Below, in pieces: positions 27,451 through 45,824 of a stretch of DNA of 64,000 nucleotides. Under the pieces are notes generated by a model. It made no database searches. It was not told the origin of the DNA and saw only the letters and a program-made list of their open reading frames with translations. Positions within the stretch are counted from its first letter, which is position 1; the number at the start of each line of letters is the position of its first letter. A program made the position numbers and the translations under genes. Where the stretch lies: the NCBI GenBank assembly GCA_016182875.1, contig JACPFQ010000010.1:1268-65267 (forward strand). The letters are read 5' to 3'. Source of the stretch: Candidatus Doudnabacteria bacterium (GTDB taxonomy: Bacteria > Patescibacteriota > Doudnabacteria > UBA920 > O2-02-FULL-48-8).

Positions 27451-29743
27451 CGGTAACCATTTCCTTGACCCAAATCGATTTGCTGGCCATAAACTCAAAG
27501 CAAGAATCCGCTGGCAGAGGAGGGCTGAACAAATAACCCTGGGCCCTGTCGCAGTGGTTTTTAATCAGGAACTCAAGCTGACGTTTGTTCTCGACTCCTT
27601 CGGCCACCGCCACTTTACCCAAATTATGAGCTAGTTGAATGATTGTTATGGCAATCGCGCGGTCATGCGCGTTATTGGGAATGCCAGCGACGAATGACCG
27701 GTCGATCTTTAAAACATCAATGTTGAATTGCTTGACGTAGCTCAGGGAAGAATAGCCGGTATTAAAGTCATCAATGGTGAAGTTAACTCCGATTCTTCCC
27801 AGCTCCTCCATAATGCGCCGCACCAAATCCGCTTCCGCAAGCAAAGTTCTTTCCGTCAGTTCCAATTCCAAAAGCTTGCTGGGCAGCCGGTATTTTTGCA
27901 GCCAACCCGAGATTTTTTGGCCCAAGTCAGTCTGGTTGAATTGGCGTGAAGATAAGTTCACGGCAACACCGACCGGCAAACCGCTTTTGTGCCATTCGGC
28001 AGTTTGGGCAATGGCTTTTTCCAAAGCATAGTCTCCTATTTCATCTATCATTCCCGTGACTTCGGCAAGCTCGATGAACTCAGAGGGCCTGACCAAGCCC
28101 ATGGTCGGATGCTGCCAGCGAAGCAAGGCTTCATTTTTTATTATTTTGCCGCCGGACAGCTCGATCTGCGGTTCAAAATAAACCAGCATCTCGCGATTTT
28201 GGATCGAGCGCCGCAGGGCATTTTCCATGGTCAATTGCTGGAAAGTCGTACTTGCCAGCGACTCAGTATAAAATTGAAAATTGTTCCGACCCAGGCCCTT
28301 GGCTCGATGGAGCGCTGCTTTGGCCGTATTAAGCAGGCTTGAAGCGTCAGCGGCATCATTCGGGAAGGAACTGATGCCAATGCTGGCCGTAACATGCAAT
28401 TCGTACCCGTCAATCACGAAGGGTTTTTTGAGGCTTTCCAAAATGTCTTCGGCGGTGTTCAGCGCATTTTGCCGCTCACTTGTTTCATTGACCAAAACCG
28501 CAAATTCATCGCCACCCGAACGAGCCATAAAAGAACCGATATCAATAACCGACCTTATCCTTGCCGCAACAAACTTAAGCAAATCCTCGGCCAAAATATG
28601 ACCAAGTGAATCGTTAATAGTCTTGAAACGGTCTAAATCAATGTTCAATAACGCATAAGACTGCTTAATTTTGCTTTCGGTCAAAAGTTTGCTCATGTGT
28701 TCAAAAAAATAGAAGCGGTTGGGAAGATCGGTTAAAGAATCATAATATATCCGATGCTGAGCCTGCGTTTGAGCCTCCTCTCCTTCTTCAATGCTTGCCG
28801 CCATAATGAGGCTGGTCATGCTAAACACAAAAAAATAGACCAAAAGTAAAATCAAATTTACTTCTAGCGAATCGTTACCAGTAAACGGTCCGCGGTGAGC
28901 AAAAGTTCCTATAACGGCAATGGTGGCAATCACAAAGTTGGCCGTCACAGCCCCGATTGGTCGAAGCCTCAACCCGGCCCAGACTATAAACGGAAGCATC
29001 AGGTAAGCGTAAGGCGAGATCGTCTCCGGTATACGCAGGAAAATTATACCTGCCGTCATAAGCAGCAGAAGAAAAAACAAACGGGCTTCCCAGAGCTTGG
29101 AAGCCAAAAAATTTCTCGATTCCCTATTTGCCCAAACCAATATCAGCGGAGCTACAAGCAGGATGCCGGCCATGTCACCCAGCCACCAGACCAGCCAAAT
29201 CCGGGCAAACTGCTCCCAGGCTATGATTTGCGAAATTGCCAGATTCAAAGTTCCTAAGATCGAACCGATAAGCGAGGATAAAAAGGCTCCAGCCACGACA
29301 AAAGCTATAACGTCACGAACTCGACCAAGGCCATTTTTGAAGCCTAATTTTTCTTTCAATAGGTAAGCGCCAGCAAGCCCCACGGCTGTATTGCTGACCG
29401 CGATTCCAACGGCAGTCAGGAAAGGTTCCCGCGCCATGACATTGGCGGCGAACGCTCCAATCAAAATACCCGGCCAAATTCGGTAGCCAAAAATCAAAAG
29501 GCCCGCAAGCGCAATCCCGCTTGGAGCCCAAATCGCGGTAACCTGCTCGGTCGATTGAGCCAGAGATAAGCCCAGCCTTGCGGTCAAAAAATAAATTATG
29601 GCCAAAATCAATATTCGCTTGAGCAAAATTCTTTGGTTCAGCGAATTTTTTAGCGAGTCATAGTGCAACAAAAAAAAGCGCCAGAAACGCACCCTCGAAA
29701 AAGGAAAAGTGAAATTATTCGGCAATACCCGCATATTTACCAC
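27443..29743 (-). CDS. MASE1-GGDEF-EAL c-di-GMP signalling protein
   Basis: Polytopic N-terminus, GGDEF (RSGGDEFAVL) and EAL (EALLRW...DDFNTGYSSL). Confidence 0.85.
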   Translation of the reverse strand: MVNMRVLPNNFTFPFSRVRFWRFFLLHYDSLKNSLNQRILLKRILILAIIYFLTARLGLSLAQSTEQVTAIWAPSGIALAGLLIFGYRIWPGILIGAFAANVMAREPFLTAVGIAVSNTAVGLAGAYLLKEKLGFKNGLGRVRDVIAFVVAGAFLSSLIGSILGTLNLAISQIIAWEQFARIWLVWWLGDMAGILLVAPLILVWANRESRNFLASKLWEARLFFLLLLMTAGIIFLRIPETISPYAYLMLPFIVWAGLRLRPIGAVTANFVIATIAVIGTFAHRGPFTGNDSLEVNLILLLVYFFVFSMTSLIMAASIEEGEEAQTQAQHRIYYDSLTDLPNRFYFFEHMSKLLTESKIKQSYALLNIDLDRFKTINDSLGHILAEDLLKFVAARIRSVIDIGSFMARSGGDEFAVLVNETSERQNALNTAEDILESLKKPFVIDGYELHVTASIGISSFPNDAADASSLLNTAKAALHRAKGLGRNNFQFYTESLASTTFQQLTMENALRRSIQNREMLVYFEPQIELSGGKIIKNEALLRWQHPTMGLVRPSEFIELAEVTGMIDEIGDYALEKAIAQTAEWHKSGLPVGVAVNLSSRQFNQTDLGQKISGWLQKYRLPSKLLELELTERTLLAEADLVRRIMEELGRIGVNFTIDDFNTGYSSLSYVKQFNIDVLKIDRSFVAGIPNNAHDRAIAITIIQLAHNLGKVAVAEGVENKRQLEFLIKNHCDRAQGYLFSPPLPADSCFEFMASKSIWVKEMVTAI

Positions 29744-30517: not shown

Positions 30518-31792
30518 CTATTTAATTTTCCTCACCAGTCTCGACTCGTCTTTAGGCTTTTTATTCAAGACGAGGCGGACAATCCCCTTGTTGGCGTCGA
30601 CTTCGACCAAGTCTCCGTCCTTGAAAATCTTGGTCGCGAACTTAGTGCCGATGACGCAGGGTTTTTTCAGCTCTCTGGAAACAATTGCCGCATGGCAAAG
30701 CATGCCGCCTTCGTCCGTGACAATCGCGGAGGCTTTTTTAATTGCCGGTAACCATTGCGGGCGGGTCATGGAGGTAACAATAATTGATTTGTTCTTTACT
30801 GCTTTTATATTTTTAGCAGTCATCAAGATAACAACCTTTCCACTAGCTTTACCCGCTTGGGCAGTCGTCCCAGACAAAGTGTTGATTTTTGAAGAAATAT
30901 TTCCTTGCGGCCCTAACTCTTTCGCAGCGATTTTCTGTGCCTCTCTCCCGGAATACAGTAACCAGGTTTGATTCTTTAAAACTAAAACGTAAAAGCTTCT
31001 TCGCTTTTTTACTTCAACTTGGAGTAACTTCCAACTCCTCTTTACGCTTTGCAAGATTTCTTCAGGCCGATACCAGACCAGGTCTTTTTTTGGAATTTCG
31101 TTTTGTCTCACGATTTTTTCTAAAAATTTTTGGAATTTCGGAAAAGAATATTTAGTAGTTACTAATTCAGCAACTTCGTGCAAATAAAACCGCCATTCAA
31201 AATATTTTATTAATTCTTTAAACGCGGTCGAAGGCTTGAGCTTGTTTAACAATCTTAGCTTTTTCTCTACTAGCGCCTTATCCGGATGAAAAAACTCCTC
31301 AAGGTTGCTTGCGTTTATTACAGGATAAACAAGGGTAGCAAATAGCTCGTCACTTGTTCCATATCCAAATTTCAAAAGTTCTTTTTTCAACAGCAGCTCG
31401 AGCTCTGGCTGAGGTATGCAGTACGCCACTATCGCCCTTGCCTGGATATAAAGATTAAAATAATTTTTCAAAGATTCTATAATTTGATCTGGCTGATCTG
31501 GCGGTAACTGCTCGATGTGGTCAGTCAGCCTGATCAGTTGAGTTAATATACTGCAAGAACTCTTAAATAATCTTTTATATACTTTTGTTTTATAATCATT
31601 CTGGATAATTCGTAATTTTTTTGGGATTTCATTTGGTCCGAAATACATAACCGGCAGTTCGTGCTCCGCAACTATTAAAATCTCACCAATGCAATATTTG
31701 GTTCCAGATAAATTTGTGGCATACCCAAGAGTTTTGAGGTAACGCTCAAGCAAAGTTGCCTCCCGAGTAATCATTTTTTTCCAGTAGGTCAT
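30518..31792 (-). CDS. paralog 6: novel helical N-domain + C-terminal PEP-utilising phosphohistidine (swivel) domain
   Basis: C-terminus [28 protein letters not shown]...[11 protein letters not shown]. Confidence 0.8.
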   Translation of the reverse strand: MTYWKKMITREATLLERYLKTLGYATNLSGTKYCIGEILIVAEHELPVMYFGPNEIPKKLRIIQNDYKTKVYKRLFKSSCSILTQLIRLTDHIEQLPPDQPDQIIESLKNYFNLYIQARAIVAYCIPQPELELLLKKELLKFGYGTSDELFATLVYPVINASNLEEFFHPDKALVEKKLRLLNKLKPSTAFKELIKYFEWRFYLHEVAELVTTKYSFPKFQKFLEKIVRQNEIPKKDLVWYRPEEILQSVKRSWKLLQVEVKKRRSFYVLVLKNQTWLLYSGREAQKIAAKELGPQGNISSKINTLSGTTAQAGKASGKVVILMTAKNIKAVKNKSIIVTSMTRPQWLPAIKKASAIVTDEGGMLCHAAIVSRELKKPCVIGTKFATKIFKDGDLVEVDANKGIVRLVLNKKPKDESRLVRKIK

Positions 31793-32112
31793 AGTAACAA
31801 CTCTGCCGCTGTCCGAGCCTGTTTCTCTCCTTCACCAGTTAATTCCGCTTCCGCTCCCTCGCCTAGGGCCTGACCGTGCCTGAAAAAATAAGCATTAACT
31901 TCCCGGCCTTTAGGTTCTTCTTCTCTCGCCTCCTTAAATCTCGGCTCTCCCTCTCCCTCTCCAAATTTTCTTTCATTCATATATTAACCTTTCTTAATTA
32001 TTTTATCTTCCTCACAACCCCTCGATTCGCCCCTGTACCAGTCCGCCTCAGGCGAACAGTACAGGGCTTCGCTCGCTCTGTGCACTTTAGTACGGTCGTG
32101 TATTAAAGCCTG

Positions 32113-33375
32113 TTAATTTGCTCGTTTAAGTAATTTTACTATTCCCCGCTGCGCATCCACCTCGACCAAATCCCCTGTCTTAAATACTTGTGTCCCTATT
32201 TTGGTCCCTATAATACATGGGATTTTCATTTCCCGGGATACTATCGCTGCATGGGAAGTAATTCCACCTTCATCTGTCACAATGGCTTTAACTTTTTTCA
32301 AATATGGCACGGCTGCGGGCTGGGTTTCTGGAGTAATTAAGATCTCGCCTGATTTGATTCCTGAAAAATTATAGGCATCAGCAACGCGGGCTCGGCCAGT
32401 AACCCTACCTTTATTTGCAATTAACCCCGCAATTTTGGAAGTTCTACCGTTTAAATCCTGGATTGATTTTTTAAAGTCTTGAAGTTTGGGTCCAACAATA
32501 ATCTTAACTCCTTGAGACGCAAACATTAAACCGTAATCTTTCTGTCGCAATTTCAGAATTCTGCGATTAAACTTTCCGGAAATTAACTCTTCTGGGGTCA
32601 ATTGCCTGGCTGCTTCGTAACTTAATCCCTGAGCTTTTTTCATTAGCAAAGGTTTGAAATAATAGAAAAATTCACTAATTTTATACAGCCGCCAGTCACG
32701 GAAATGAATATATTCCTGCGCCATTGCAACTAATCGATCAATGCGAGGATTAATCTTTGTTTTTTGTGATTGCACGGCCTTAATTTGATTTTTCTTTGCT
32801 GATTTCCAATCAGCCTTGAATGTTTCGTAAGTCAACGGAGTTATGTCCATAACGTAAGAATTTATCCATGCATAATTTATGAATACCTTTTTAAATACTT
32901 CTGGGTTTGGCTTCTTAACTGCGCGCAAAGCTTGTTGGTATTTTTGGCGCATTAAGGGTTTCTTGCCAAGAGGAACTTTCTCAATTACCGGTTTGAGCTC
33001 TTCATTAATAACCAAATCAATCATAATCGGCAAATAGGTAGCTTGAAATGCCAAAGCCGCTTGATCGAATATCTGTTTGAGGTTTTGCTTGGTAGCATGT
33101 TTGGTATGCTTTGTGATGACGATAAGCTTTTCTGAATCACCTTTCATCTTTTTCAAGGCCCGATATGGCCAATCCGTCCCAAGTTTTTTTTTGATAGCTT
33201 GTAAAAGTAATTTAAGCTCTCGTTCTTCCACCCATAAACTACCCGAATGTCTAGCCCAATGTTTGAGATTGGGCAGACCAAAATAATCGCCGAATTCGCG
33301 TCGTAATGATTCCATAACCCAATAAACATACAAAATCGGATGATTACCGCGAGTAAAAAATCTTATCCATTTCAT
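32113..33375 (-). CDS. paralog 5: variable N-domain + PEP-utilising phosphohistidine domain
   Basis: C-terminus [28 protein letters not shown]...[11 protein letters not shown]. Confidence 0.8.
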   Translation of the reverse strand: MKWIRFFTRGNHPILYVYWVMESLRREFGDYFGLPNLKHWARHSGSLWVEERELKLLLQAIKKKLGTDWPYRALKKMKGDSEKLIVITKHTKHATKQNLKQIFDQAALAFQATYLPIMIDLVINEELKPVIEKVPLGKKPLMRQKYQQALRAVKKPNPEVFKKVFINYAWINSYVMDITPLTYETFKADWKSAKKNQIKAVQSQKTKINPRIDRLVAMAQEYIHFRDWRLYKISEFFYYFKPLLMKKAQGLSYEAARQLTPEELISGKFNRRILKLRQKDYGLMFASQGVKIIVGPKLQDFKKSIQDLNGRTSKIAGLIANKGRVTGRARVADAYNFSGIKSGEILITPETQPAAVPYLKKVKAIVTDEGGITSHAAIVSREMKIPCIIGTKIGTQVFKTGDLVEVDAQRGIVKLLKRAN

Positions 33376-33626
33376 TTTATTTTCCTCACAATCCCATTAT
33401 TCGCATCGACTTCCACCAAATCGCCGTCTTTTAATCTTTTATATTTACTATTCCTGTAAATCAAGCGGACTTTCGCGGTATCCTGTGTAATCCACTTTTG
33501 TTCTTCTTTCGTCTTGTAATACTTCTTGTTTGCGTAAAAATGACCGAAAATTTTAGCCTGTCCTTGTTTTCGATCAAAGTATATTTCCGCCAACTTATTA
33601 TTAACCATTGCAAAACACCACGGCAT
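33372..33626 (-). pseudogene. remnant of a further paralog (only the extreme C-terminal swivel-domain motif retained)
   Basis: Ends ...[20 protein letters not shown], identical in style to the paralog C-termini, and lacks the GG..HAAI core. Confidence 0.5.
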
Positions 33627-33638
33627 AGATATTTTTTA

Positions 33639-34055
33639 TTATTTTGTTAGATACTTATTCAAAAAATCACCTGGCAAAAGAATGGGAAACGACACGGCTC
33701 CCATCACCCTGGGCTGGATAAAATGCTTACGGTCTAAAGTTATAAAAAAATCGCAATTGGCTTTCATGGCCGCAGCAAGAATTACTGCATCAAATACATT
33801 GATTAATTTTTTAGCTTTTAAGATTGTTTTTTTATCTGGCTGGATTAAAACCGCATGCACAGAATCAAACAAAGCTAAAAAACTTTGAACTTTAACGGGA
33901 TATTTCTCGTTCAAATTCCTGGTAACTTCCTCGAAAACATCTGGCGAGCTGATTACCGGAAGCCTCTTATTTATGACTTGGCGAATAATTTCGGCTGACG
34001 CGCCTTGTTCAGAAAGACTCGCCGCTATCCAAACACTACTGTCTAAGAAAATCAT
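33639..34055 (-). CDS. vapC: PIN-domain toxin (VapC-like)
   Basis: Start MIFLDSSVWIAA plus conserved acidic residues; 138 aa, immediately downstream of the RHH gene. Confidence 0.7.
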   Translation of the reverse strand: MIFLDSSVWIAASLSEQGASAEIIRQVINKRLPVISSPDVFEEVTRNLNEKYPVKVQSFLALFDSVHAVLIQPDKKTILKAKKLINVFDAVILAAAMKANCDFFITLDRKHFIQPRVMGAVSFPILLPGDFLNKYLTK

Positions 34056-34057
34056 CT

Positions 34058-34330
34058 TTATTTAAAAAGATAAGGATAGCGTTCTTTTACCAATTCCGAT
34101 CGAATTCGCCTATAATCTTTTTCAATTTTTTTCCATAACCGGGCATCTTCTTTTTCGAGCTGAAGTAATTTTTTCTTTGGGATTTTTTTGCTTGCTTCTT
34201 CCAAATAACGGCGCAGTGCCGTGCGTAAAAGTTCTGAACGGGTCATATTCTGCTTTTGGGCTATTTTTTCCGATTCCCGCAGCATTTGAGGCGGTAGGGA
34301 AATAGTGACTAACGACGTATTACGCTTCAT
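34058..34330 (-). CDS. vapB: ribbon-helix-helix antitoxin (CopG/VapB-like)
   Basis: 90 aa with an RHH-like N-terminus (VTISLPPQMLRESEKIAQ); 3-nt spacing to the PIN gene. Confidence 0.6.
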   Translation of the reverse strand: MKRNTSLVTISLPPQMLRESEKIAQKQNMTRSELLRTALRRYLEEASKKIPKKKLLQLEKEDARLWKKIEKDYRRIRSELVKERYPYLFK

Positions 34331-34424
34331 ATAATTTATATGTTAATACTAAGTATTAACATTGTACTTAGCTAATTTATAGCTGTCAATATGCCTTTTC
34401 TATAACCTATTATATCTAAAATTA

Positions 34425-35873
34425 TCATCTGCCAACTTTTCTGACAATCCCCTTACTAGCATCGACCTCGACCAAATCCCCATCTTTGAGGACTTTGGTT
34501 GCTATTTTGGTGCCGACGATGCAAGGAACGCCCAGCTCGCGGGAAACTACCGCCGCATGAGACATTAGTCCGCCGACATCAGTGACAATTGCTTTAGCCT
34601 TGCGCATAGCAACTATATAGTCGGGTGAGGTCATGGGGGCGACCAAGATTTCTCCGGGTTTCATGTATTGGGCAAATTTCGGTGAATGCAGAATCCTAGT
34701 CCGCCCGCTAACCTTCTGTCCTGAATTAAAAGCCACTATTCCTTGGACTTCTTTGCCAGCATTTATTTCTTTCTTCGATTCCAAAGCCTTGAGGAAATCT
34801 TTTACTTTTTTGCCGTAAAAAAATCTGTAATCCTTGGGTGTTACCAAAATCATCGTCGAATTTTTCCTGTGCTTAAGTACGCGAGGACTGACCTTGGCCC
34901 CGGTTTGGAATAACCTTAACCACTCGGCGCAATCATAATACATCAACTGGTCAATGCTTAGGCCAAAAACCGGGCTGGCGAATTTATTAAACCTATCAAT
35001 GACATTGTGGGCCCGCCAGCTGGTGGCCTTGCGGTGGTCCTGCCACCAGATAGAAAAAGAAATATTACGCGCAGCGGCGACCAAGCTTTTTGGAACGTGA
35101 TATTTTTTTATAACTTGTCTTTTTCTTTTGGCGATCTCGCGGCGCGATGCCAAAATGTTTTGTATTTTTTCCTTCAGCTGCTGTTTGGAAAGCCTGCTCA
35201 CTTGCCTTAAAAAATATGTGTCGGGAAGGATTTGCGCTGTATAATAGCTATTTTCCACCCAATACCATTTGGAGGCGTAAACTTTCAATTTGGCGCGCAA
35301 GCCCTTTTTATTTTTAGCCGCTAAGGCAGTTTGGAGCAATTCCAGTTCGCTTTGTTGATGGAAGCTTGGTTTTGGAGAGGCCATAAGTATGCCAACTGTT
35401 TCTTCCATCTCGCTTGCTGGAACAAGGCCGCGAAGTTTCCTGCTTAAATATTCAGGTGAGGCAAAATTAGCCAGTTCTTGAACTAAAGCATAAACCCAAA
35501 GTTGAATCAAATAACGGTAAAATTTTTCAACGTAAGGCCTAAGCTGCTCAATATTTTTAAAGTTAGTGACATGCGATATCTCTCTTTTAAATTTTCTAAG
35601 GTTAAGCACATTGTCCCAGTACTTTTTCCACAAAATTTTCATTTTCCCAGTGGGAATAATCCAGCGATTCAGCGCGACCTCACCCCTTTTTTGCATCTCT
35701 GCTTTCTCCCAATAATACGCCATCTTGTCGTGGCCATAAATCCCGACATAAGTGGGCCAGGGCGCTTTGAATTTCATGCCGCTTGTGGCATTGGCCACTA
35801 TCCAAAACGACGGATACAAAAGCCTCCCATCTATTGGGCCCCACTGGTCAATTTCTTTTTTATGGTTAAGCAT
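34425..35873 (-). CDS. paralog 4: variable N-domain + PEP-utilising phosphohistidine domain
   Basis: C-terminus AIVTDVGGLMSHAAVVSRELGVPCIVGT...[11 protein letters not shown]. Confidence 0.8.
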   Translation of the reverse strand: MLNHKKEIDQWGPIDGRLLYPSFWIVANATSGMKFKAPWPTYVGIYGHDKMAYYWEKAEMQKRGEVALNRWIIPTGKMKILWKKYWDNVLNLRKFKREISHVTNFKNIEQLRPYVEKFYRYLIQLWVYALVQELANFASPEYLSRKLRGLVPASEMEETVGILMASPKPSFHQQSELELLQTALAAKNKKGLRAKLKVYASKWYWVENSYYTAQILPDTYFLRQVSRLSKQQLKEKIQNILASRREIAKRKRQVIKKYHVPKSLVAAARNISFSIWWQDHRKATSWRAHNVIDRFNKFASPVFGLSIDQLMYYDCAEWLRLFQTGAKVSPRVLKHRKNSTMILVTPKDYRFFYGKKVKDFLKALESKKEINAGKEVQGIVAFNSGQKVSGRTRILHSPKFAQYMKPGEILVAPMTSPDYIVAMRKAKAIVTDVGGLMSHAAVVSRELGVPCIVGTKIATKVLKDGDLVEVDASKGIVRKVGR

Positions 35874-35876
35874 GTG

Positions 35877-36743
35877 TTATTTACCCAGTCTAGCTTTTAA
35901 CCATTCCGTAATTTGTTGAGAAAATTGCGGCCATTCTGACTCTAGCATCAGCAAGTGCCCTGCTTTCATTTCGAGATAATCTCCTCTTAAAAACCTCGCT
36001 AGTTCCTGGCACTGCTGCGGGGAAACACGGTTGTCATCCGAAGCCCCAACAACTAAAATAGGACATTTTATTTTTTCCGGATTGATTGAAGGAGGTTTGC
36101 TATAAGCTTCAAAACGAGCCTGGTGTGACTCAAATCCCAACATTGGCTTGTATTTTTCATCATAGGCTGCTTCAAAGTCAGACGGAACCCGATCGCCAAA
36201 CCAGCTTAAAAAACTCGCTTTATCTCTTTTTATCATATCTCCCCTTGCAATTAATTCTTGAACTTTTGCTTCTTCTTCGGGAGTTGGCGCTTTCATCGGA
36301 AACTGAGATGGGAGTCCGGGTGTAAGCAAAATCAATGCGGCTGGCTTTTGGTCAGCGGCTTGCTCCATTGCAGTCAAGCCGCCGGCGCTACGGCCTACCA
36401 ATACTTGTTGATTGTAATTTAAGCCTTGCTGTGTTAAATCTTCACGCGCCCTGCGGATATCTTCGTTAAAATCCACCATGCTTCTACCTGCGAATTCTGC
36501 ATTAGGAAGTTCGCCCAGCCGCCCTTTAAGATTAACTGACATTGAATCAAAGCCATTGCGCCCGAAACTTTCCAAAACGGGCAGGCCACTTTTTGCAGTA
36601 AGACCTGATCCGGGAATGAAAATGGCAGTCTCCAGATAAAGTTTGGGCTCTGCTGGCAAAAATTCTGCTCTTAATCCGCCTACAATGATTTCTCTCGTAG
36701 GAATTTTGGGAGCATCAAATCGCCCGGAATCTTCTATGCTCAT
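35877..36743 (-). CDS. alpha/beta-fold hydrolase
   Basis: GRSAGG nucleophile elbow (GxSxG) with downstream D/H; 288 aa. Confidence 0.65.
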   Translation of the reverse strand: MSIEDSGRFDAPKIPTREIIVGGLRAEFLPAEPKLYLETAIFIPGSGLTAKSGLPVLESFGRNGFDSMSVNLKGRLGELPNAEFAGRSMVDFNEDIRRAREDLTQQGLNYNQQVLVGRSAGGLTAMEQAADQKPAALILLTPGLPSQFPMKAPTPEEEAKVQELIARGDMIKRDKASFLSWFGDRVPSDFEAAYDEKYKPMLGFESHQARFEAYSKPPSINPEKIKCPILVVGASDDNRVSPQQCQELARFLRGDYLEMKAGHLLMLESEWPQFSQQITEWLKARLGK

Positions 36744-37735
36744 TCTTTCTTTTCAAACCTACTCTTTGCTACTTCAGCTAACTCTCTAACTTTTTGCCAG
36801 TCCAAATAAACTCTTTTGCCTTTAAATAATTTGGCCCGCTCAGGGTCTGTAAACTCAAACTCCGCTTTGGTGTCTTTGTCAAAATCATCTAAGCTTCGCG
36901 GATCGCCCATTCTGGTGTCGCGGGAAAGTTTGATGCGAAACGCTGTGGCCTGTTTGGTGAACCCGCCGATTTCGTCCACGTCATCAAAGCCGACTTTCCG
37001 CTCCCCGGTTTGCGGATCTTCTACGACCAAAGCCTGTTTATACAAAGATTCCGCAAACAGTCCGCTGCCGACTATGGGAATCGCTTTTGACTCACCGCCC
37101 TTCACGCCTCTTCTGGAAAGCTCAATTGCGTGCATCAACTCATTGGCTTCGTTTTCGGCCAAAGGACGGGCAATATCTTCATTGGCTAGCGCTTCTCGCA
37201 ATCCTACTATTTGCGCCTTTTCCCTATTTGCGGCTCGAAATTCCGCGTCAGATTTGAATCTTTCCTGGTCCTCCGGCGACAACTCTAAAACCAAACGATT
37301 GAGCTTAGTGTTGATCAAATCTTTGTATTGCTTCAACACCGGATTTAGGCCAGCGCCAGCATAATCAACGCCTTTGCCGCGCCTTGCTCCTTTTACTTTG
37401 CCGGTTTTGCCTTTGACCGGTGAGGCGTCTTCTCGCTCACCGAACTTTTCACTCCCGGCCAATATATCTTCTCCGGTTTCACCATGTCTGGGCTCATCTC
37501 CTCCCCGAGGATGAACCAAAGTCACTTCTTCGGGATAATTAGCCGCCCCATACTCTTTTGCTCGGGACTTGCCCACAGGCGTTAAGTCCGTAGGGTCATC
37601 AAACTTTTGCCGGCTGCCATCGGCAAAGGTGATATCCATCGGCCCGCCGAACCTACTGCCGTGGCGCGTAAGGTCGATGTAGGTCGTCGCGATAAACTGT
37701 TTCTCCTCCTCAAGATTGCGCATTTCTTCATTCAT
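36740..37735 (-). CDS. hypothetical protein, possible histidine-phosphatase-like (RHG motif near N-terminus), charged/low-complexity middle
   Basis: LTRHGSRFGGP motif; otherwise unrecognised. Confidence 0.35.
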   Translation of the reverse strand: MNEEMRNLEEEKQFIATTYIDLTRHGSRFGGPMDITFADGSRQKFDDPTDLTPVGKSRAKEYGAANYPEEVTLVHPRGGDEPRHGETGEDILAGSEKFGEREDASPVKGKTGKVKGARRGKGVDYAGAGLNPVLKQYKDLINTKLNRLVLELSPEDQERFKSDAEFRAANREKAQIVGLREALANEDIARPLAENEANELMHAIELSRRGVKGGESKAIPIVGSGLFAESLYKQALVVEDPQTGERKVGFDDVDEIGGFTKQATAFRIKLSRDTRMGDPRSLDDFDKDTKAEFEFTDPERAKLFKGKRVYLDWQKVRELAEVAKSRFEKKE

Positions 37736-38322
37736 AGTTTTTGTAACTCCTTTTTTAATTGTTCAACATTTTTATAAATTAGAATTTTCATTGCCAATTG
37801 CTCGGCACCCTCGATTCTGTCCGGACGATCATCGATATACAAAGCTTCGCTTCCGGAAACGCCGGCTTGTTGGAGTGCATATTCGTAAATTTTCACATCT
37901 GGCTTGCGGATATGCAGATAACTGGATACAGCTTTAATAGTAAAAATTTCACCCCAATGATACTGCTGCCAAAAATAATCAAACCATTCTTTGGGATTAT
38001 TGGAAATAACGCCCAGGGTGAAGCGGCTCTTGAGAACCGCCAAGAATCCCAGCAGTTCTCTGTTCGGGGAAAAATTTTTAAGAATCAATTTCTTTAAATC
38101 CTCGACGTCCAGCGCTTGCTTGAAGTCTTCCGCAGTTTTTTGAAAGTACTCCTGCTCGCTAATATTGCCCAAAGTGAAGTCCTTCCACCACACTCCATCA
38201 TGAGCTGAAGCGTAAAGCAAGCCAGGTTTAATCCCATGAGCCGCCTCGTATTCCTTAATCCCGGCTGTAAAACCTTCTCTCACTAAAACATTACCGGAAT
38301 CAAAAAAAATTGCCTTGATCAT
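37732..38322 (-). CDS. HAD-superfamily hydrolase (subfamily IA-like)
   Basis: Motif I IFFDSGNVL and motif IV YIDDRPD. Confidence 0.65.
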   Translation of the reverse strand: MIKAIFFDSGNVLVREGFTAGIKEYEAAHGIKPGLLYASAHDGVWWKDFTLGNISEQEYFQKTAEDFKQALDVEDLKKLILKNFSPNRELLGFLAVLKSRFTLGVISNNPKEWFDYFWQQYHWGEIFTIKAVSSYLHIRKPDVKIYEYALQQAGVSGSEALYIDDRPDRIEGAEQLAMKILIYKNVEQLKKELQKL

Positions 38323-39815
38323 TTTGCTCTTTCCAGAATCCGGACGATTCCTTTTTGCGCATCCACTTCCAGCAAGTCATCGTCGTGGATAATCCGGGTT
38401 CCATTTTGGGTGGCGATGACGCACGGAACTCCCAATTCGCGGGAGACAATCGCGGCATGCGAAGACAAGCCTCCCTGGTCCGCGACAATTGCGACCGCTT
38501 TTTCCATGGCCGGCACAAAATCCGGAGTGGTGAACTGCGCCACCAGGATGTCGCCCCGCTTGACCTTGCCTATTTCATGTTTGTCCAGGCAGACCCTTGC
38601 TCGACCCCGGATCATGCCGCCCAAACACGCCATCCGTCCGTGAATCTCTTCGATTTGCTCAACTTTGACAAAATACTTTTTTTCTAATTTTTTAATTTCG
38701 GCAGGATCAGTAATCAACTTGGTTTCGGCATTCCGCACTACCATGGCGTAATCTTTAAATCTCCTTTGCATCTCAGCGCTATTGGGCAGCGGCTTGCCCC
38801 GGAGTGCGCCAAACATTTCCGGAGTGGAGACTTCCATAATCCAGTCAGGGTTGAATTTGGCTCGTCGGGCGATCTCGGCGTACATGAAGCTTGCGCCATA
38901 ATCGGCGTTGAAAAACGCTTCTACGCGGCGGTTGCGGACGTAGGAATGGAGTTTTGCCTGGCCAATGATCTTTTGGAAATCTTTTTTCGGCCTAATTTTC
39001 TCAATGGCGTCTTTGTAATCGTCCCCGACTTTCTTCTCGGAAGCGAAGTAGATTAGGTCATCAATCGACTGGCCTGCGGAAATTTGCCTTTTTATCTCTT
39101 TGAGCCTGTCAATTATGTCCTTGTAAGAGTAGGGCTTGCTCGTGGCTAGGCCGCGGTTGATGTAGGCAAATTTATCCAGATGCTTTTGAATTTTTTGCTT
39201 AAACTTCGACGGCAAGCTGTTTAAATCAGCTTTGGCTTTGAAAAGTTCTTTGGCCAACAGCGTCAGCTTCCACCGTTCTTCGGCCACGTCGGTCATTTCT
39301 TTGGGATCGGTAAAGACCAATACATAATGGCGAAAATTTGGATTATCGCCTTTGATGCAATCAAGCAATTTTTCCTCAATTGCTTTTTCAAAATATTCAT
39401 CCAACGGGTATTGGGCATACCAAGGGCAGGCCAACTCTCGATACTGCTCCAGCAAATCTTTCAAAACGCCTGCCATGTGTCGGTTGGTTTTGCTCTGCCA
39501 ATCTGTCTTTTTGAGCTCAAAACCCCGATTGTAAAGCTTCTCCGACTTTTTCAACTCGCGCACGCAGTATCTTTCAAACCAGCCGTCATTTTTCTTGGGG
39601 TGCCCGGTTATTTCCGCTTCAAAGGGATTATATTCCTCCGCCGGCCAGTAGATCATGTGGTGCAGGTAAGCTCTGTTGGCCAAAACCGTTCTGATTTGAG
39701 CCTTCGCCGCGTTTTCCGGATTGAACGAAGAGTTAATCATGAAGCGCAAAAAGATCGGAAGCTTGCCCGACGGCTTGATCCTCCATTTGCCCGAATACAT
39801 TACTGCCCCGGCCAT
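38319..39815 (-). CDS. paralog 3: variable N-domain + PEP-utilising phosphohistidine domain
   Basis: C-terminus [28 protein letters not shown]...DDLLEVDAQKG. Confidence 0.8.
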   Translation of the reverse strand: MAGAVMYSGKWRIKPSGKLPIFLRFMINSSFNPENAAKAQIRTVLANRAYLHHMIYWPAEEYNPFEAEITGHPKKNDGWFERYCVRELKKSEKLYNRGFELKKTDWQSKTNRHMAGVLKDLLEQYRELACPWYAQYPLDEYFEKAIEEKLLDCIKGDNPNFRHYVLVFTDPKEMTDVAEERWKLTLLAKELFKAKADLNSLPSKFKQKIQKHLDKFAYINRGLATSKPYSYKDIIDRLKEIKRQISAGQSIDDLIYFASEKKVGDDYKDAIEKIRPKKDFQKIIGQAKLHSYVRNRRVEAFFNADYGASFMYAEIARRAKFNPDWIMEVSTPEMFGALRGKPLPNSAEMQRRFKDYAMVVRNAETKLITDPAEIKKLEKKYFVKVEQIEEIHGRMACLGGMIRGRARVCLDKHEIGKVKRGDILVAQFTTPDFVPAMEKAVAIVADQGGLSSHAAIVSRELGVPCVIATQNGTRIIHDDDLLEVDAQKGIVRILERAK

Positions 39816-39818
39816 AAT

Positions 39819-40397
39819 TTAGAATTTAAATTCTTTTGAATGCATTAAAAAATATTTCAATTCTTCGATAAAAGGTTCTGTAAGCCTCATCTTTTTCTCG
39901 TTATAAAGCTGCCAGACTTTTCTTAAATCAAATGCTTTAAAATTCTTAATTTCCTGCCGGTTTGGTTTGACTTGTCCGTCATGTTTCCCAATGTACCAAT
40001 ATACCATTATTCCGCCGATTGATAAACCAGGCATCGGAATAATCTTTATCAGTTTAAGAGGAACCTGAATGCCTAACTCTTCCTTCAACTCCCTCAAAGC
40101 ATCGGCCAAAATCTGTTTTTTTGTTCGTGCGCCCGACCTTACAAATCCGGAGCATGCTGATTGCCAATGAAGCGGCTGGATGTCTTTCGTTCGGCTTCTT
40201 TGCTGGAGCCAAAATTTTCCCTGCGAGTTTTTTAGCCAGATGTGGGCTGAGCGGCGCATCAATTTCCGGTTCTGCAAGAATTTTTTTCTCGTAGCCCTGC
40301 CAATGACCTTATTGCGCAAATTCACGATATCGTGCAGCTCACCCATCGGGTCAGAGCTGTCTTTGAGATTAATCAGTTTTACTCTCTTTAATTTCAT
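39819..40397 (-). CDS. Nudix hydrolase
   Basis: Nudix box SGFVRSGARTKKQILADALRELKEELGI (Gx5Ex7REUxEExGU). Confidence 0.65.
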   Translation of the reverse strand: MKLKRVKLINLKDSSDPMGELHDIVNLRNKVIGRATRKKFLQNRKLMRRSAHIWLKNSQGKFWLQQRSRTKDIQPLHWQSACSGFVRSGARTKKQILADALRELKEELGIQVPLKLIKIIPMPGLSIGGIMVYWYIGKHDGQVKPNRQEIKNFKAFDLRKVWQLYNEKKMRLTEPFIEELKYFLMHSKEFKF

Positions 40398-41007
40398 TTT
40401 CTAGAAGCTGATTTAAATCGCCGATTTCAAAAAACTGATGCTCGGTCCACTTAAGACTGGAATCATTGCTATTTATGTTATAAACCCGGGTTTTAAAATT
40501 TGCGCCCTCATCCTGTAAATGCTTTGCGGCATCCAGGAAAAACCGGCAATTTTCACGGCTGTTATCCGTATAAACTATTGTATCATAACCGGCAACAAGC
40601 TTCTTAACCAGAATGTCTTTAAGCATCGCTTCTGTTTTGATATTCGTGTTCCCGTAGTCAAAAGTGCTATGGACTTCTCTGATGTAATCGCGCGGGTCAA
40701 TGCCATACTTTCTTACGATCTGCTCAGCCCGCCAATCCATCTGTTCGGGGTTGCCAGTCGTGAATACCGCATTGTTTTTGGTCCAACCCAAAACTTCCTC
40801 GAAATGTTCGGCTAGATCAAGATCAAACAACCCCTTCCGGTACGGCCGTTCGTAAGCGTACTCATAATCTCTGGGGCTAATGGTCTTTAGATCGAATCCG
40901 AGCGACTCAATATAAGCGTCAAAGTTTGGGAAGCCGCTTTTTCGGCTGTCCCATCGCTCCAGAAACAAAGTGTCCGCCAAATCCCAAAGGTACAAAGTCT
41001 TACTCAT
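40369..41007 (-). CDS. HAD-like hydrolase / nucleotidase-like (weak)
   Basis: N-terminal LYLWDLADTLF, a DxDxT-like motif. Confidence 0.35.
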   Translation of the reverse strand: MSKTLYLWDLADTLFLERWDSRKSGFPNFDAYIESLGFDLKTISPRDYEYAYERPYRKGLFDLDLAEHFEEVLGWTKNNAVFTTGNPEQMDWRAEQIVRKYGIDPRDYIREVHSTFDYGNTNIKTEAMLKDILVKKLVAGYDTIVYTDNSRENCRFFLDAAKHLQDEGANFKTRVYNINSNDSSLKWTEHQFFEIGDLNQLLENEIKESKTD

Positions 41008-41013
41008 TGCAAA

Positions 41014-42495
41014 TTATTTTATTTTCCTCACCCACCCATGATTGGCATTGACCTCGACTATGTCGCCGTCTTTCAAAACTTCGGTGGCGATCTTGGTGCC
41101 GATGATGCAGGGGATGCCCAGCTCGCGGCTGACAATCGCGGCGTGCGAAGTGATGCCTCCTTCGTTGGTGACGATTGCCGCGGCTTTCTTCATGGCCACC
41201 ACGTAATCCGGCCGGGTCATGACCGCCACCAAAATATCGCCGGCCCTGACTTTGCCCACTTCCGAAGAAGATTTAAGCACCTTCACCGGCCCAATGGCCT
41301 TGCCCGTGGATGCCGAAAGCCCGCGGAAGTCATCGACTTCTTCCTGTTTTCTGCGGCCGAACATGGCAGATTTAAGAGCCTCAACGTCGCGGCCGGTGAA
41401 AAATTTGGCATACTGCCTCGTGGCAATCACCGCCGAACCTTTCATGCGCTCCTGCAAAATTTTTCGGCTCGGATTTCCGGACTTAATAATGTCCGGTATT
41501 TCCGAGGGTCCGGCGTACTTTAATTCATCTAAAGTATAGTGTGCCTTTTTGGCGATGGCAGACAGAATTTGACAGCCCATGTGGATATTCAGATAGGTAG
41601 CGCGCTTGCGCTGGTCCTGCCATGCCGTAAAGTCATCGGAAATTTGCAGCAGGGTCCGCAAAAAAACCGAAAGCTTGTACTGCCTAAATAATTTTTGCTT
41701 CGCTATTTTATTTCTTGCCGGTGTTTCTTCAATCTGCCGCAGCTCTTCTGCCAAATTCTTTTTGCTTTGCTTCCAGGCTTTAATTTCCTGTTCAAACTCG
41801 GCAACGCTGAGCACGTGGGCGCGAATGTAATTATTACTGGTCCAGAAAAATTTCTTCTGATGATCTTTGAGCGAATCTTTGGACTTGCCCAAAATTATTT
41901 TAAGCAGGCTGATCTCAGCTTCACTTATGAAAGATTGTCTGGTGGGAGCGGAAGCGACGGCGAAAATCTTGGCCAAATCCGATGTTTTGAGATTTCTGCC
42001 ATATTTTGTTACTTCTTTTTTCAGCATGTCGGCCACCAGCTCATCCGTGCCCAAAGCAAAGTGGTCGATGATTGCCGAGGAAGTGAAGCGCTTGACTCCA
42101 GCGATATGATAGCGCTCCCAAGCTTGCGCCAAGGAGGCTTTGGATAACTTTTTCAAATCAGCCTTTTGCAGTTTCTTAAACAGTCTTTCAAAAATTTGTT
42201 CGTCCTTCTTCCATAGGCGCATAAGCTTGCGGGAAAAGTCGGGGTCTTTTTTGGCAAGCTTAAGAATTACGCGAACGCCGCGCTTTATATCTTTCTGGTC
42301 CAGGTACCAGTCAACTTTTCCCCGGTCAAAAAAGCAGACGCGCACATCCGCCTCGGTTCCAGCCGGCTTGCGGGGTTCTTTTTTCGGCTCTGCCTCCCAA
42401 ATAAACCCGATAAACATTGGTGAGCCATCAAACCGCTGATGGTACCATTCTCGGTTCTTCAATTGGCCTAAATTATAGCTTTTTAATAGTTTCAT
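41014..42495 (-). CDS. paralog 2: variable N-domain + PEP-utilising phosphohistidine domain
   Basis: C-terminus [28 protein letters not shown]...[11 protein letters not shown]. Confidence 0.8.
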
Positions 42496-43940
42496 TTCTT
42501 AGCTTTCGTTAATATTTTAACCATTCCTAAATTTGCATCAACTTCCACCAAGTCCCCAGTTTTTAGAACTTTCGTGGCGACCTTAGTCCCGATTATGCAG
42601 GGAATTCCAAGTTCCCGCGAGACAATCGCCGCATGCGATGTAATCCCACCCTCATCTGTAATAATAGCCGAGGCTTTATGCATAAACGGCACAAAGTCCG
42701 GCCGGGTCATGGTCGTGACCAGTATTCTGCCGTCGATAAATTTTTCCTTATGAGGATTGATGACGACGCAGACCTGGCCCTTGAAGCGGCGGACAGGTGC
42801 GGAGGCAACAAAGCCCCAAAACGACTGAACCTGCCTGGTGCGGAAGCGATCAAAAATTGCCTGGGCCTGCTTGCCAACATAAATTTTTTCGTCCAATCCT
42901 GTTTTTGTCAAACTCGTGACGATCACCGAAAACCTTCTGCGCTGTTTGGGAATTCTCGAATCCAGCTTAACTTTTTTTATTAATAAATTTACAGCTTCTT
43001 CTGGGGTATAATAATTAAGCAAGTCTTTGGGAACTTTTGTTCTTCTGATGATTTCATCCAAAAGGGAATCAACATAATAAATCATATGCAGAGCGCCGAA
43101 CTTTCTTTCGTCAATCCAGCGGCTCATGATTCGCAAAAGTTCAAATGTCTTGGCCATTCTTGGAGTCAAACTAAATTCTGCCAAAAGCTGAGTTTGATGC
43201 TTTTTTAGATTGAGGGCTTTACTTTGCAAGCCCCTTATCTCTCGTTGAACCTGTTCTCGATTTTTTGACTTCAATAATATTTTGGCCTGATTCTGGAAAT
43301 AGTTCTTATCCAATGCTTTGTGGCCAGTATAGTTGTTCTGCGACCAATGATATTTCTCGGCAAAGGCTTTGAAGTTTGGTTTTCTCTTGAGGCACTCTTG
43401 GAGAAACTCCAGCCTTTCCCGTTCAATAAATGAAAGCATGGGATATGTTGAAAGAATCAAACTGGCTTCCGCCGGAACGTTTTGATCCAGTAATTCTTGA
43501 TCAGAATAAATGTCAGCAGACTCGGGAATAATAGAATGAGTGAAATGGAGGACGGATAAATCATAAACCTCTCGATAGACAGCGGCCAATTTTCTATCAG
43601 AAAATTTTTTTCTTCCCGTGACCGCCCATTCTCCTCTCTGGATCAGCTGTTTCTGGACAGCTTTGTATTTTTTGTACCAAAGCAGAACTTTGCGCGGATT
43701 GCGCAGGTACAGATTTAGAATTTTATGGAACTGCCTGAGCTTTTCTTGCTCTGAAGTTTTTTCCAGAACTAGGTCACTTTTATAAAGAGCCAGGCAGATG
43801 CTCAAAAATTTCTGCTTGTAAACGTGGCTTTGCATGATGAAACATCGCCAAGCACAGATAGTCAACTGATAGTTGCTGGGCATGTCCTCACTCCACCAGG
43901 TGTCTTTTTTGATTTTCCCGATAATTTGTTCAAAGATCAT
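42492..43940 (-). CDS. paralog 1: variable N-domain + PEP-utilising phosphohistidine domain; ATGA-coupled to the upstream ATP-grasp gene
   Basis: C-terminus [28 protein letters not shown]...[11 protein letters not shown]. Start at MIFEQ overlaps the stop of 43937..44872. Confidence 0.75.
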
Positions 43941-44872
43941 AACGTAGTGATTGGCCGAGATTGAGTGATGTAAAATTTGCCGCGAACAAAAGCCCATTCT
44001 ATGTCTTGAGGTTTTTTGTAGTGTTTCTCAATGCCTTTGCAAATTTTTGCCAGCTCCACGATTTGCTTGCCGGTTAGCTTCTGCCTTCCGCCGGCTTTGG
44101 CTGATAATTTTTTGTGCAAGTTTTTATTTCCTGCCCGCACGATCATCATGCTTTGCTCCGAGACATTTATATCCAGAATCGAAAGGTCGTCTTTGTGGAC
44201 CACGTAAGTATCCGGGGTTACTGAACCGGAAACTATGGCTTCGCCCAAACCAAACCCGGCCTCAATCACCATTTGATTGCGGTCTTTAGTGACCGGGTGC
44301 ACGGTGAAGCAAATGCCGGAAATTTCCGACTGGATCATGGCCTGCACGACCACGGCGACGGAAACCGGCTTTTTATGCAGTTTCTTTTCGAAGCGATAGA
44401 AAATCGCGCGCGGCGTGAACAGCGAGCTCCAGCACTTTTGCACGTTTTTCAAAAGGTCTTTTTCGGTCGTGTTCAAATACGTTTCAAGCTGGCCGGCCCA
44501 AGCGGCGGTCGAGCTATCTTCGGCCGTGGCCGAGGAGCGGACAGCTACAAACTTGCTCTTAAGCCGCCGAAAGTGACTTTTAACCTCTTCGGCCACATCT
44601 TTGGGCATTTTAGCTTTCTCAATCAACCCTCGAATATCTTCCGATGCTTCCTCGACCGAATTTATATCCTTATGGTTGACCTTCTTCAAAGCCGCCTCGA
44701 CTTCGGCGTCCAAATCCGTCTCCTCCAGGAACTGGTCAAATGCGGAGGCAACAACCACAAAACCCGGCGGAACCGTAATACCCGCCTGAGTCATTTCCCC
44801 AAGCGAAGCGCCTTTGCCCCCGGCGATTGACACATCTTTTTTTGATAGTTGCCTGAATATTTTGACGAACAT
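43937..44872 (-). CDS. stand-alone PPDK_N-type ATP-grasp nucleotide-binding domain protein (PEP synthase / rifampin phosphotransferase N-domain-like)
   Basis: [10 protein letters not shown]...VPPGFVV...[11 protein letters not shown]...DIEWAF...ITQSRP matches the PEP/pyruvate-binding ATP-grasp signature; 311 aa. Confidence 0.8.
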
Positions 44873-44873
44873 T

Positions 44874-44892
44874 GCTATACGTTCAGTATAGC
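44874..44892. promoter_or_regulatory. perfect palindrome gctatac-gttca-gtatagc abutting the ATP-grasp gene start
   Basis: 7-5-7 inverted repeat 2 nt upstream of the start codon. Confidence 0.35.
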
Positions 44893-45004
44893 ATTTTCCG
44901 TAGTATTTGTTTGCGCTTCTTCGTTGACTTTTGTGAGCCCGATAATTGAAACTGCCAAAGTAAAGCCGCTATGACGATAAGCCAAGGACCTAGTTTATAT
45001 TGGT

Positions 45005-45427
45005 TCAAATCTTGAAAAATTCGCGGGCCTGAAGCTCATCATCTTTCATCTGGTCTATAAGCGCTTCTTTGGTTTCGAACTTCTGGTTATCGCGTATCTT
45101 TTTGATAATCTCGACTTCCAGTTCACAGCCATAAATCTCCTGGCTAAAATCAAGGATATGAACCTCGACCAAGGTTTTGGTTTCGTCGAAGGTTTCCGCC
45201 TTGCCTATAAAAATCAGCGCAGGGAGGCCAGTGTTTTTGAAAAGCTTGGCATGCGGCAGCAGCTTGCGCAAAAACAGCGGCGGGAGTTTGCCGCCGGTGA
45301 TATTTTTTACTAACCCAAGATAGATGCCCTCTGGTAACTCTATTTTGGCATCCAAATTCGCCGTTGGGTAGCTAAGTCGCTTACCACGGCCGAGGTGTTT
45401 GATGACTTTACCTGAAATACTTGTCAT
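45005..45427 (-). CDS. riboflavin kinase
   Basis: Contains KVIKHLGRGKRLSYPTANLD, a flavokinase motif. Confidence 0.7.
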   Translation of the reverse strand: MTSISGKVIKHLGRGKRLSYPTANLDAKIELPEGIYLGLVKNITGGKLPPLFLRKLLPHAKLFKNTGLPALIFIGKAETFDETKTLVEVHILDFSQEIYGCELEVEIIKKIRDNQKFETKEALIDQMKDDELQAREFFKI

Positions 45428-45428
45428 G

Positions 45429-45824
45429 TTATTTGCTGTTCGAACGAAGCTGAGAACTTTTATAAATACTCGGCCTAAAAGCCTTCAGCCGAACCACTTT
45501 CGCGATTTTTTTGAGCTGATTCATGCTCACATAAGGCATCTGGTCATAACCAAGCGCAATTACATCCGGCTTCTCTTTACGAATATGCGGCCAGGGATTT
45601 TTTAGTCCACCCAAAACCACTTTATCTATAAACGGTAATTTTTTAAGCGCGGCGGTTCTTGTTTTTTCGCTCTGTGAAGTTTTATGCCTCTTAACCTTTC
45701 TAACGTTTGCGTCTCTGGCAACCGAAACCACCAGATAGTCACCAAGCTTTTTCGCCTGCTTCAAAAAATCTACATGCCCCGGGTGCAGTAAATCAAATAC
45801 TCCAAAGACCATGACTTTTTTCAT
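45429..45824 (-). CDS. cytidylyl/adenylyl-transferase-like (HxGH) protein, probable FMN adenylyltransferase partner of riboflavin kinase
   Basis: Contains VFGVFDLLHPGHVDFL, a (T/H)xGH nucleotidyltransferase motif. Adjacent to, and 2 nt from, the riboflavin kinase gene. Confidence 0.5.
   Translation of the reverse strand: MKKVMVFGVFDLLHPGHVDFLKQAKKLGDYLVVSVARDANVRKVKRHKTSQSEKTRTAALKKLPFIDKVVLGGLKNPWPHIRKEKPDVIALGYDQMPYVSMNQLKKIAKVVRLKAFRPSIYKSSQLRSNSK

Follow-up and report, generated by a model that had tools for sequence, protein, structure and literature searches.

The question raised by this locus is whether two bacterial genes that share a four-nucleotide overlap are the pieces of one broken gene or the separate subunits of one enzyme. 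Both lie in a stretch of 64,000 nucleotides (hereafter the window) from Candidatus Doudnabacteria bacterium (GTDB lineage Bacteria; Patescibacteriota; Doudnabacteria; UBA920; O2-02-FULL-48-8), comprising positions 1,268–65,267 on the forward strand of contig JACPFQ010000010.1 in assembly GCA_016182875.1. The upstream gene encodes a stand-alone ATP-grasp protein (AD), and the downstream gene encodes the first of six paralogous proteins, here termed partners, in which a region resembling the rifampin-binding domain (RD) of rifampin phosphotransferase (RPH) is joined to a swivel domain carrying a catalytic His. The evidence points, with good confidence, to a genuine, anciently split RPH-like dikinase in which one AD most likely serves six partners in trans. 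The notable feature of the locus is this combination of one AD with six very different partners, a layout common in bacteria of the candidate phyla radiation (CPR), and not the junction between the first two genes. All coordinates are positions in the window, in which the AD, partner, and accessory genes all occupy the minus strand.

AD (311 aa; 43937–44872) contains an ATP-grasp domain (PPDK_N, PF01326, E 6.8e-102) as its sole domain. Its 100% database match is Candidatus Doudnabacteria HYV13_04040, and the 120 best database matches are nearly all 310–312 aa in length, PF01326-only, 68–84% identical, and mostly from Patescibacteria; more than 100 stand-alone homologs of ∼311 aa are found at 70–84% identity among the database matches. 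The protein aligns over its full length to the ATP-grasp domains of RPH and PpsA and retains the DIEW..QSRP and nucleotide/Mg motifs, with alignments to phosphoenolpyruvate (PEP) synthase 8A8E (E 2.9e-75), RPH-Lm (1.3e-63), and the 387-aa chain 9GOJ (9.5e-49). The end of AD coincides with the ATP-grasp boundary of RPH (residue 316 of 5FBS; the AD-only construct 5HV6), and the catalytic DIEW...QSRP motifs reach to within five residues of its stop codon. AD is 47–48% identical to the archaeal PpsA loci L078–L084. For comparison, 80 related loci on contigs from one genome per species were scanned with custom AD and partner hidden Markov models (HMMs); together with the window, these gave 80 assessable AD copies. 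AD stands alone in 69 of the 80, and 57 of these 69 end in ...ITTL, with TAA (39), TAG (16), or TGA (14) as the stop codon. Six copies, a minority found in CPR relatives (L045, L052, L058, L064, L072, and L081; 798 aa in L064), form fusions with an RD-like and swivel region, and five are true archaeal PEP synthases. The fused CPR forms (L064:9989–12382, L045, L052, L058, and L072) are 695–798 aa long; most are basal in a rough neighbor-joining (NJ) tree of ADs that carries no support values, and L058 nests among the split forms. Directly abutting the AD start codon (44873–44893), two perfectly matched 8-bp arms around a 5-nt loop (gene strand, TGCTATAC TGAAC GTATAGCA) form an inverted repeat with an RNA folding energy of −9.5 kcal/mol; the regions upstream of AD in L005 and L003 show at most a faint resemblance to it. 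This repeat could serve as an operator, or as a hairpin that controls translation. A gene with a PaaX_M domain lies directly upstream of AD in L001, L002, and L004, and separate riboflavin-kinase and cytidylyltransferase-like (FMN adenylyltransferase-type) genes adjoin the array in the window (45005–45824, minus strand) and in L003 (15214–16311).

HMM scanning of the window detected a single AD, six intact partners, and one relic. Partner 1 (482 aa; 42492–43940) consists of an RPH-RD-like helical domain (residues ∼1–375) followed by the swivel with His436, and its sole Pfam match is the C-terminal swivel domain (PF00391, E 3e-26). Partner 2 (493 aa, His451; 41014–42495; PF00391 E 9e-26, partner HMM 4e-138) overlaps partner 1 by ATGA, and partner 3 (498 aa, His453; 38319–39815; E 1.2e-23 and 4e-111) runs by an ATGA overlap into a HAD phosphatase gene. 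Partner 4 (482 aa, His439; 34425–35873; E 3e-27 and 1e-131) is the last in the tight same-strand block begun by AD, the junctions of which range from −29 to +6 nt (mostly −4 to +6, with one 29-nt overlap). Partner 5 (420 aa, His375; 32113–33375; E 2.3e-25 and 3e-84) and partner 6 (424 aa, GGMLCH motif; 30518–31792; E 6.1e-25 and 4e-92) complete the set. PF00391 is thus present in all six (E 1e-23 to 3e-27), as is the catalytic His motif, GG(I/L)(T/S/M)SHAA or GGMLCHAA (five by alignment and the sixth read directly); Pfam identified no other phosphodonor domain and no PEP/pyruvate TIM barrel in any partner. The relic of a seventh partner (33375–33635) keeps only the last ∼22 swivel residues (partner HMM positions 476–497, E 2.4e-6) and still overlaps the partner 5 start by ATGA, which points to turnover of the array by gene birth and death.

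A profile of 37 partner homologs (A2) was aligned to PDB sequences and matched residues 608–866 of RPH-Lm (5FBS), corresponding to the end of the rifampin-binding domain (608–770) and the swivel, while PEP synthases and pyruvate, phosphate dikinase (PPDK) matched this profile in the swivel only (8A8E, E 6.5e-45). Partner 1 was modeled with AlphaFold2 (pLDDT 93.6, pTM 0.90). Its best PDB matches by Foldseek were six RPH-Lm structures (including 5HV1, 5FBU, 5FBS, and 5FBT; E 8e-12 to 1e-10, probability 1.00), which alone gave query-normalized TM-scores (TMq) near 0.5 (0.47–0.53); every other match was at or below 0.21. By profile alignment and predicted structure, then, the partner is a homolog of the rifampin-binding and swivel-His domains of RPH, and AD and a partner together correspond to an RPH-like dikinase divided precisely between AD and RD. 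Among the six partners, the N-domains share only 14–25% identity as compared to about 50–70% for the swivels, consistent with a common docking module combined with different specificities. When sequences were clustered at 50% identity, a profile of the six N-domains retrieved 3,914 clusters at a threshold of E ≤1e-3 and 1,990 at E ≤1e-10; members are mostly 470–530 aa long with the domain at the N terminus. Four homologs (P0247, P0249, P0264, and P0371) are 1,800–2,650 aa long and contain two to four tandem partner N-domains, either as true multi-module fusions or through gene-calling read-through of arrays. Long homologs had been flagged as informative fusions to PF02350 (Epimerase_2), but these are actually tandem partner–partner fusions, in which the epimerase match is sub-threshold and overlaps the swivel.

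As the preliminary description of this DNA had noted, the AD stop codon lies within an ATGA, the ATG of which starts partner 1. Direct reading of the reverse complement of 43937–43940 gives ATGA: the TGA from 43939 to 43937 closes the 311-aa AD open reading frame (ORF), and the ATG from 43940 to 43938 opens the 482-aa ORF of partner 1. Such overlaps account for 6 of the 15 junctions in the same-strand gene string of the window, and the one between AD and partner 1 is therefore unremarkable here. The AD genes of L001/L002, L004, L005, L006, L014, L025, L049, and L077 also end in ATGA, whereas those of most other loci do not. The junction is ordinary operon packing between two real, separate genes, with no frameshift site, and AD and partner 1 are probably translationally coupled through it. 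The in-frame N-terminal extension of partner 1, previously given as 60 nt and said to overlap the AD gene, does exist: a longer ORF of 501 aa starts at an ATG at 43997 and overlaps AD by 61 nt. The additional 19 codons (43941–43997) lie inside the AD gene and are a −1 frame reading of its conserved C-terminal coding sequence. In an alignment of partner 1 with 12 homologs (A1), which was used for start-site choice, 11 of the 12 start at the Met equivalent to 43940, and the real partner 1 is therefore taken to be the 482-aa form, with the extension unused; in the lone exception (P0123, locus L004), the added N terminus is likewise the conserved AD C terminus read in the alternative frame. The NCBI model of partner 1 (HYV13_04035) begins at an internal Met and is just 315 aa long. 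This call is too short, because homologs at 42–52% identity span 97–99% of the 482-aa protein.

Two readings would make the AD–partner 1 pair a single gene in origin or in product. In one, the two genes derive from one RPH-like ORF of ∼793 aa that was interrupted by a 1-nt indel near 43940, either by recent fission or by mis-assembly. The preliminary description had proposed that AD and paralog 1 add up to a full RPH-like protein, and this part of the proposal stands, in that the three domain types occur in RPH order and the sum of 793 aa matches fused CPR relatives (e.g., L064, 798 aa); an A6 run 76–81 nt before the AD stop also falls in a part of AD over which the partner frame is open. What did not survive comparison is the recent splitting of one gene, or an assembly error of one nucleotide separating the two ORFs, which had been named as the finding that would overturn the description: across 69 independent assemblies the AD stop marks one and the same domain boundary, any of the three stop codons being used, and 311-aa AD homologs dominate the database. 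An indel at the A6 run would moreover exchange the conserved C-terminal ATP-grasp motifs for unrelated sequence, and the gene downstream of AD varies, being a DUF5674 gene in L001/L002 (via ATGA), following an 85-bp spacer in L003, a partner 1 ortholog in L004, and absent where AD is the last gene. In the rough NJ tree, the window AD belongs to a large crown clade of stand-alone ADs, and most fused CPR forms group apart from it, in a basal clade. A recent break is accordingly given next to no weight. In the other reading, a programmed −1 frameshift or stop read-through would yield some AD–partner 1 fusion beside the separate products, consistent with the absence of stop codons from the partner 1 frame over the 90 nt preceding the AD stop and with comparable overlapping open frames in L004, L005, L006, and L025. 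However, an alternative frame may well stay open for 20–30 codons, and here it does so as a consequence of AD C-terminal conservation. With respect to the +1/−1 frameshift that had been suggested, a scan for canonical −1 slippery heptamers (X_XXY_YYZ) found none in the terminal 96 nt of the AD gene, and the final 15 nt (CCA ATC ACT ACG TTA TGA), the sole place where a shift would spare the catalytic motifs, are likewise devoid of a slippery site. Read-through of the TGA would, from the sequence, stay in the AD frame and reach another TGA ∼24 codons on, AD is the last gene of the array in many loci, with the partners upstream, and most relatives have no partner gene after AD. Such recoding is judged highly improbable, and assembly error, recent fission, and programmed frameshifting are all very unlikely. 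We hold the split, two-component reading with high confidence.

The earlier remark that the other five paralogs lack an AD partner was accurate in so far as the window holds one AD only, but an AD acting in trans is the best explanation of this arrangement. Partners of at least 300 aa within 10 kb of AD were counted in 33 loci with at least 8 kb available on both flanks, giving 0 (four loci), 1 (seven), 2 (six), 3 (six), 4 (five), 5 (one), 6 (three), or 7 (one) partners per AD, always on the AD strand. The repertoires turn over and differ between close relatives. In L005, AD is 84% identical to that of the window, yet the sole shared partner is a 42% match to partner 4; in L004, AD is 73% identical and orthologs of partners 1 and 2 (51% and 65%) occur in the same order. 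Overall, orthologs of partner 1 are found at 42–52% identity and those of partner 2 in L004 and L010 (59%). A Nanoarchaeota metagenome-assembled genome (JADHVY010000004.1, L085:1–17264) encodes a run of 12 consecutive partner modules, three of them within one 1417-aa ORF, with a HAD gene after the run, and the system is thus also present, and further expanded, in DPANN archaea. Swivel-only ORFs of ∼105–125 aa adjoin AD in six loci (L016:8007–8369, L020:8606–8929, L021:8779–9144, L022:2354–2728, L027:8561–8899, and L063:8052–8405) and could be free phospho-carrier proteins or gene fragments.

A strict 1:1 dikinase of AD and partner 1 would leave the other five partners to use another phosphodonor, to rely on an AD elsewhere in the genome, or to be non-catalytic. 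Such a pairing would resemble the characterized relatives HpeHI, CreHI, and PpsAB, which are 1:1 gene pairs, and partner 1 is the only partner with start/stop coupling to AD; L017 has two ADs close together, the L085 array is without an AD over 21 kb, and the view of the genome spans 64 kb. Against this, the catalytic His motif and a well-conserved swivel are present in all six partners, none of which has another recognizable phosphodonor domain or a PEP/pyruvate TIM barrel, partners 2, 3, and 4 share the tightly packed block with AD, and arrays of more than one partner beside a single AD recur in 22 of the 33 fully flanked loci. The strict 1:1 arrangement is therefore considered unlikely, and we infer, with moderate confidence, that AD is shared by all six partners.

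Several observations weigh against the proposal of an anciently split dikinase with a shared AD. The partner N-domain matches the RPH RD moderately in structure (TMq ∼0.5, 14% identity), and alignment at the sequence level reaches just the last ∼150 residues of that domain. The available flank of 15 of the 69 stand-alone AD loci contains no partner, nor do 4 of the 33 fully flanked loci. No AD was found within the 21 kb fetched for the 12-module DPANN array, from which it follows that linkage of AD and partner is not obligatory. The two ADs of L017 lie within 4 kb of each other, suggesting that particular ADs may work with subsets of the partners in some genomes. The count of one AD covers the 64-kb window.

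If the shared-AD dikinase operates by analogy to RPH, PpsAB, and HpeHI, AD would bind ATP, and the swivel His of a partner would dock on AD and accept the β-phosphate, with release of AMP and Pi. The swivel would then swing back and phosphorylate a small molecule bound in the N-domain of the same partner, so that the single AD would act as a hub and the six partners as its spokes. The conserved motifs are those expected for dikinase chemistry of this kind (ATP to AMP and Pi, a phospho-His intermediate, and a phosphorylated small molecule as product), and our best guess for the role is the trapping of scavenged metabolites or the inactivation of xenobiotics. Extended to related genomes, a tentative generalization, to which we assign slightly less than even chances, is a CPR/DPANN hub-and-spoke dikinase system in which a conserved ATP-grasp engine charges a large, fast-turnover family of phospho-His substrate-binding carriers. 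If correct, this would give reduced symbionts modular, ATP-driven phosphorylation of many small molecules, for example, to trap host metabolites or inactivate host antibiotics, as a functionally ATP-dependent counterpart of the phosphotransferase system (PTS) for non-sugar substrates. Service of many partners by one AD would be a compact route for tiny genomes to phosphorylate many substrates, and the partners would be defined candidates for what these symbionts take up or detoxify.

The array also contains accessory genes, interleaved with the partners across 35877–41007 in an operon-like block. These encode an alpha/beta hydrolase (35877–36743), a 331-aa protein with a DLTRHGSR motif (36740–37735), a HAD protein (37732–38322), a NUDIX protein (39819–40397), and a 212-aa protein (40369–41007); the hydrolase, HAD, and NUDIX assignments are from Pfam, while the 331-aa and 212-aa proteins gave no Pfam match at E ≤1. 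L001 and L085 likewise have a HAD gene after a partner gene. Neither AD, nor any partner, nor the 331-aa or 212-aa protein matched a defense system in PADLOC, and no excess of regulatory sites was apparent in a promoter and terminator scan (27 promoter-like sites as compared to 25.6 expected and 24 terminator-like sites as compared to 22.7 expected). In the spacer between partners 5 and 6 (31793–32112, minus strand), a 63-aa ORF (MNERKFGEG...AYFFRHGQA...AELLL*), the stop of which overlaps the partner 6 start by ATGA, shows a weak, sub-threshold match to the N terminus of histidine phosphatases (PF00300, E 0.087) and may be a truncated phosphatase gene. A VapBC-like toxin–antitoxin pair is also located in the array (33639–34342, minus strand), comprising an RHH/CopG antitoxin ORF (34061–34342; PF01402, E 1e-7) and a PIN toxin (33639–34055); the related arrays L001/L002 contain HicAB and GIY-YIG genes. 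Beyond the array are a 766-aa MASE1-GGDEF-EAL protein (27443–29743, minus strand) and a 493-aa protein with an RnfD/NQR2-like region and FAD/NAD-binding oxidoreductase domains (25969–27450, plus strand), both of which are contrary to our expectation for a reduced CPR genome.

Among known systems, RPH itself (Listeria, 5FBS/5HV1) and the prodigiosin ligases PigC, RedH, and HapC are fused enzymes with the same three domain types in the same order. In contrast to the single ∼865-aa polypeptide of RPH, however, the domains in the window are carried on separate proteins, and the RD is smaller (∼375 aa) and only 14% identical. Membership in the rifamycin phosphotransferases was not indicated by the NCBIfam model RIF_Ptrans_rph (NF041857), to which AD scored 295.9 bits and the partners 52–67 bits against a cut-off of 999, and no evidence was found for rifamycins as substrates of the window system. 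In sequence, AD and the swivel are both closest to PEP synthase, with the T-S-H motif shared as well. Unlike PpsA and PPDK, the window system has no PEP/pyruvate TIM barrel, places the swivel at the C terminus after a helical RD-like domain, and divides the domains between separate proteins; the score for the PEP synthase model NF005057 was 345 bits (cut-off 598), and no NCBIfam model reached its cut-off for the window proteins. The labels “pyruvate, water dikinase,” “PEP synthase,” and rph-like resistance on these genes are probably wrong, and such labels can bias the metabolism and resistome that are reconstructed from CPR genomes. A CPR resistome survey counts rph-like matches without analyzing them. 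The arrangement is also reminiscent of the PTS, though by analogy only, in that one general phosphodonor supplies many substrate-specific acceptors, and the swivel domain of enzyme I is homologous. The donor of the PTS is PEP rather than ATP, and its HPr, EIIA, and EIIB relays and membrane permeases were not seen in the window. MarK was set aside as an unrelated fold.

The nearest functional parallels are two-component RPH homologs. AD is nearer in sequence to PEP synthase and RPH than to chain 9GOJ, which is presumably HpeI (an unconfirmed identity). The PRK08296-series models NF006149–NF006153 (∼570–630 aa, “hypothetical protein”), which we assume to represent the HpeH/PpsA-type large subunit, match the partners in the swivel only, over the last ∼110 positions (50–101 bits against cut-offs of 578–730). 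The window swivels carry a PEP-synthase-like Thr-Ser-His (GGITSH), as compared to Met at that position in HpeH and RPH, and the large subunit of 420–498 aa is shorter than the ∼600–650 aa of HpeHI-type enzymes. The host differs as well, being a CPR bacterium, and Pfam identified no carboxylase or aromatic-catabolism gene among the array neighbors. HpeHI, AcvAB, CreHI, and PpsAB (phenylphosphate synthase) are each composed of an ATP-grasp subunit and an RD-plus-swivel subunit; HpeHI forms a merely transient subunit complex, requires its conserved His, and yields AMP, Pi, and a phosphorylated phenol (PMC12167813; PMC12624787). As in these systems, the ATP-grasp and RD-plus-swivel genes of the window are separate neighbors, an organization also conserved in its relatives, and the HAD and NUDIX genes and possible His-phosphatase relic recall the kinase, transforming enzyme, and phosphatase logic of the Hpe/Acv pathway. 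The window system is thus predicted from its sequences to work like the HpeHI-type dikinases while lying outside their clade. Two-component RPH-like dikinases were recognized as a subfamily only recently (HpeHI, 2025), as 1:1 pairs in aromatic catabolism only, and a search of the literature library available to the analysis returned no description of CPR/DPANN partner arrays. In contrast to the 1:1 pairs HpeHI, CreHI, and PpsAB, the window has one AD for six partners, its relatives have zero to seven, and the DPANN array has 12 modules. The locus and its relatives are a separate, large, and uncharacterized CPR/DPANN branch, in which one ATP-binding subunit stands beside many divergent specificity subunits.

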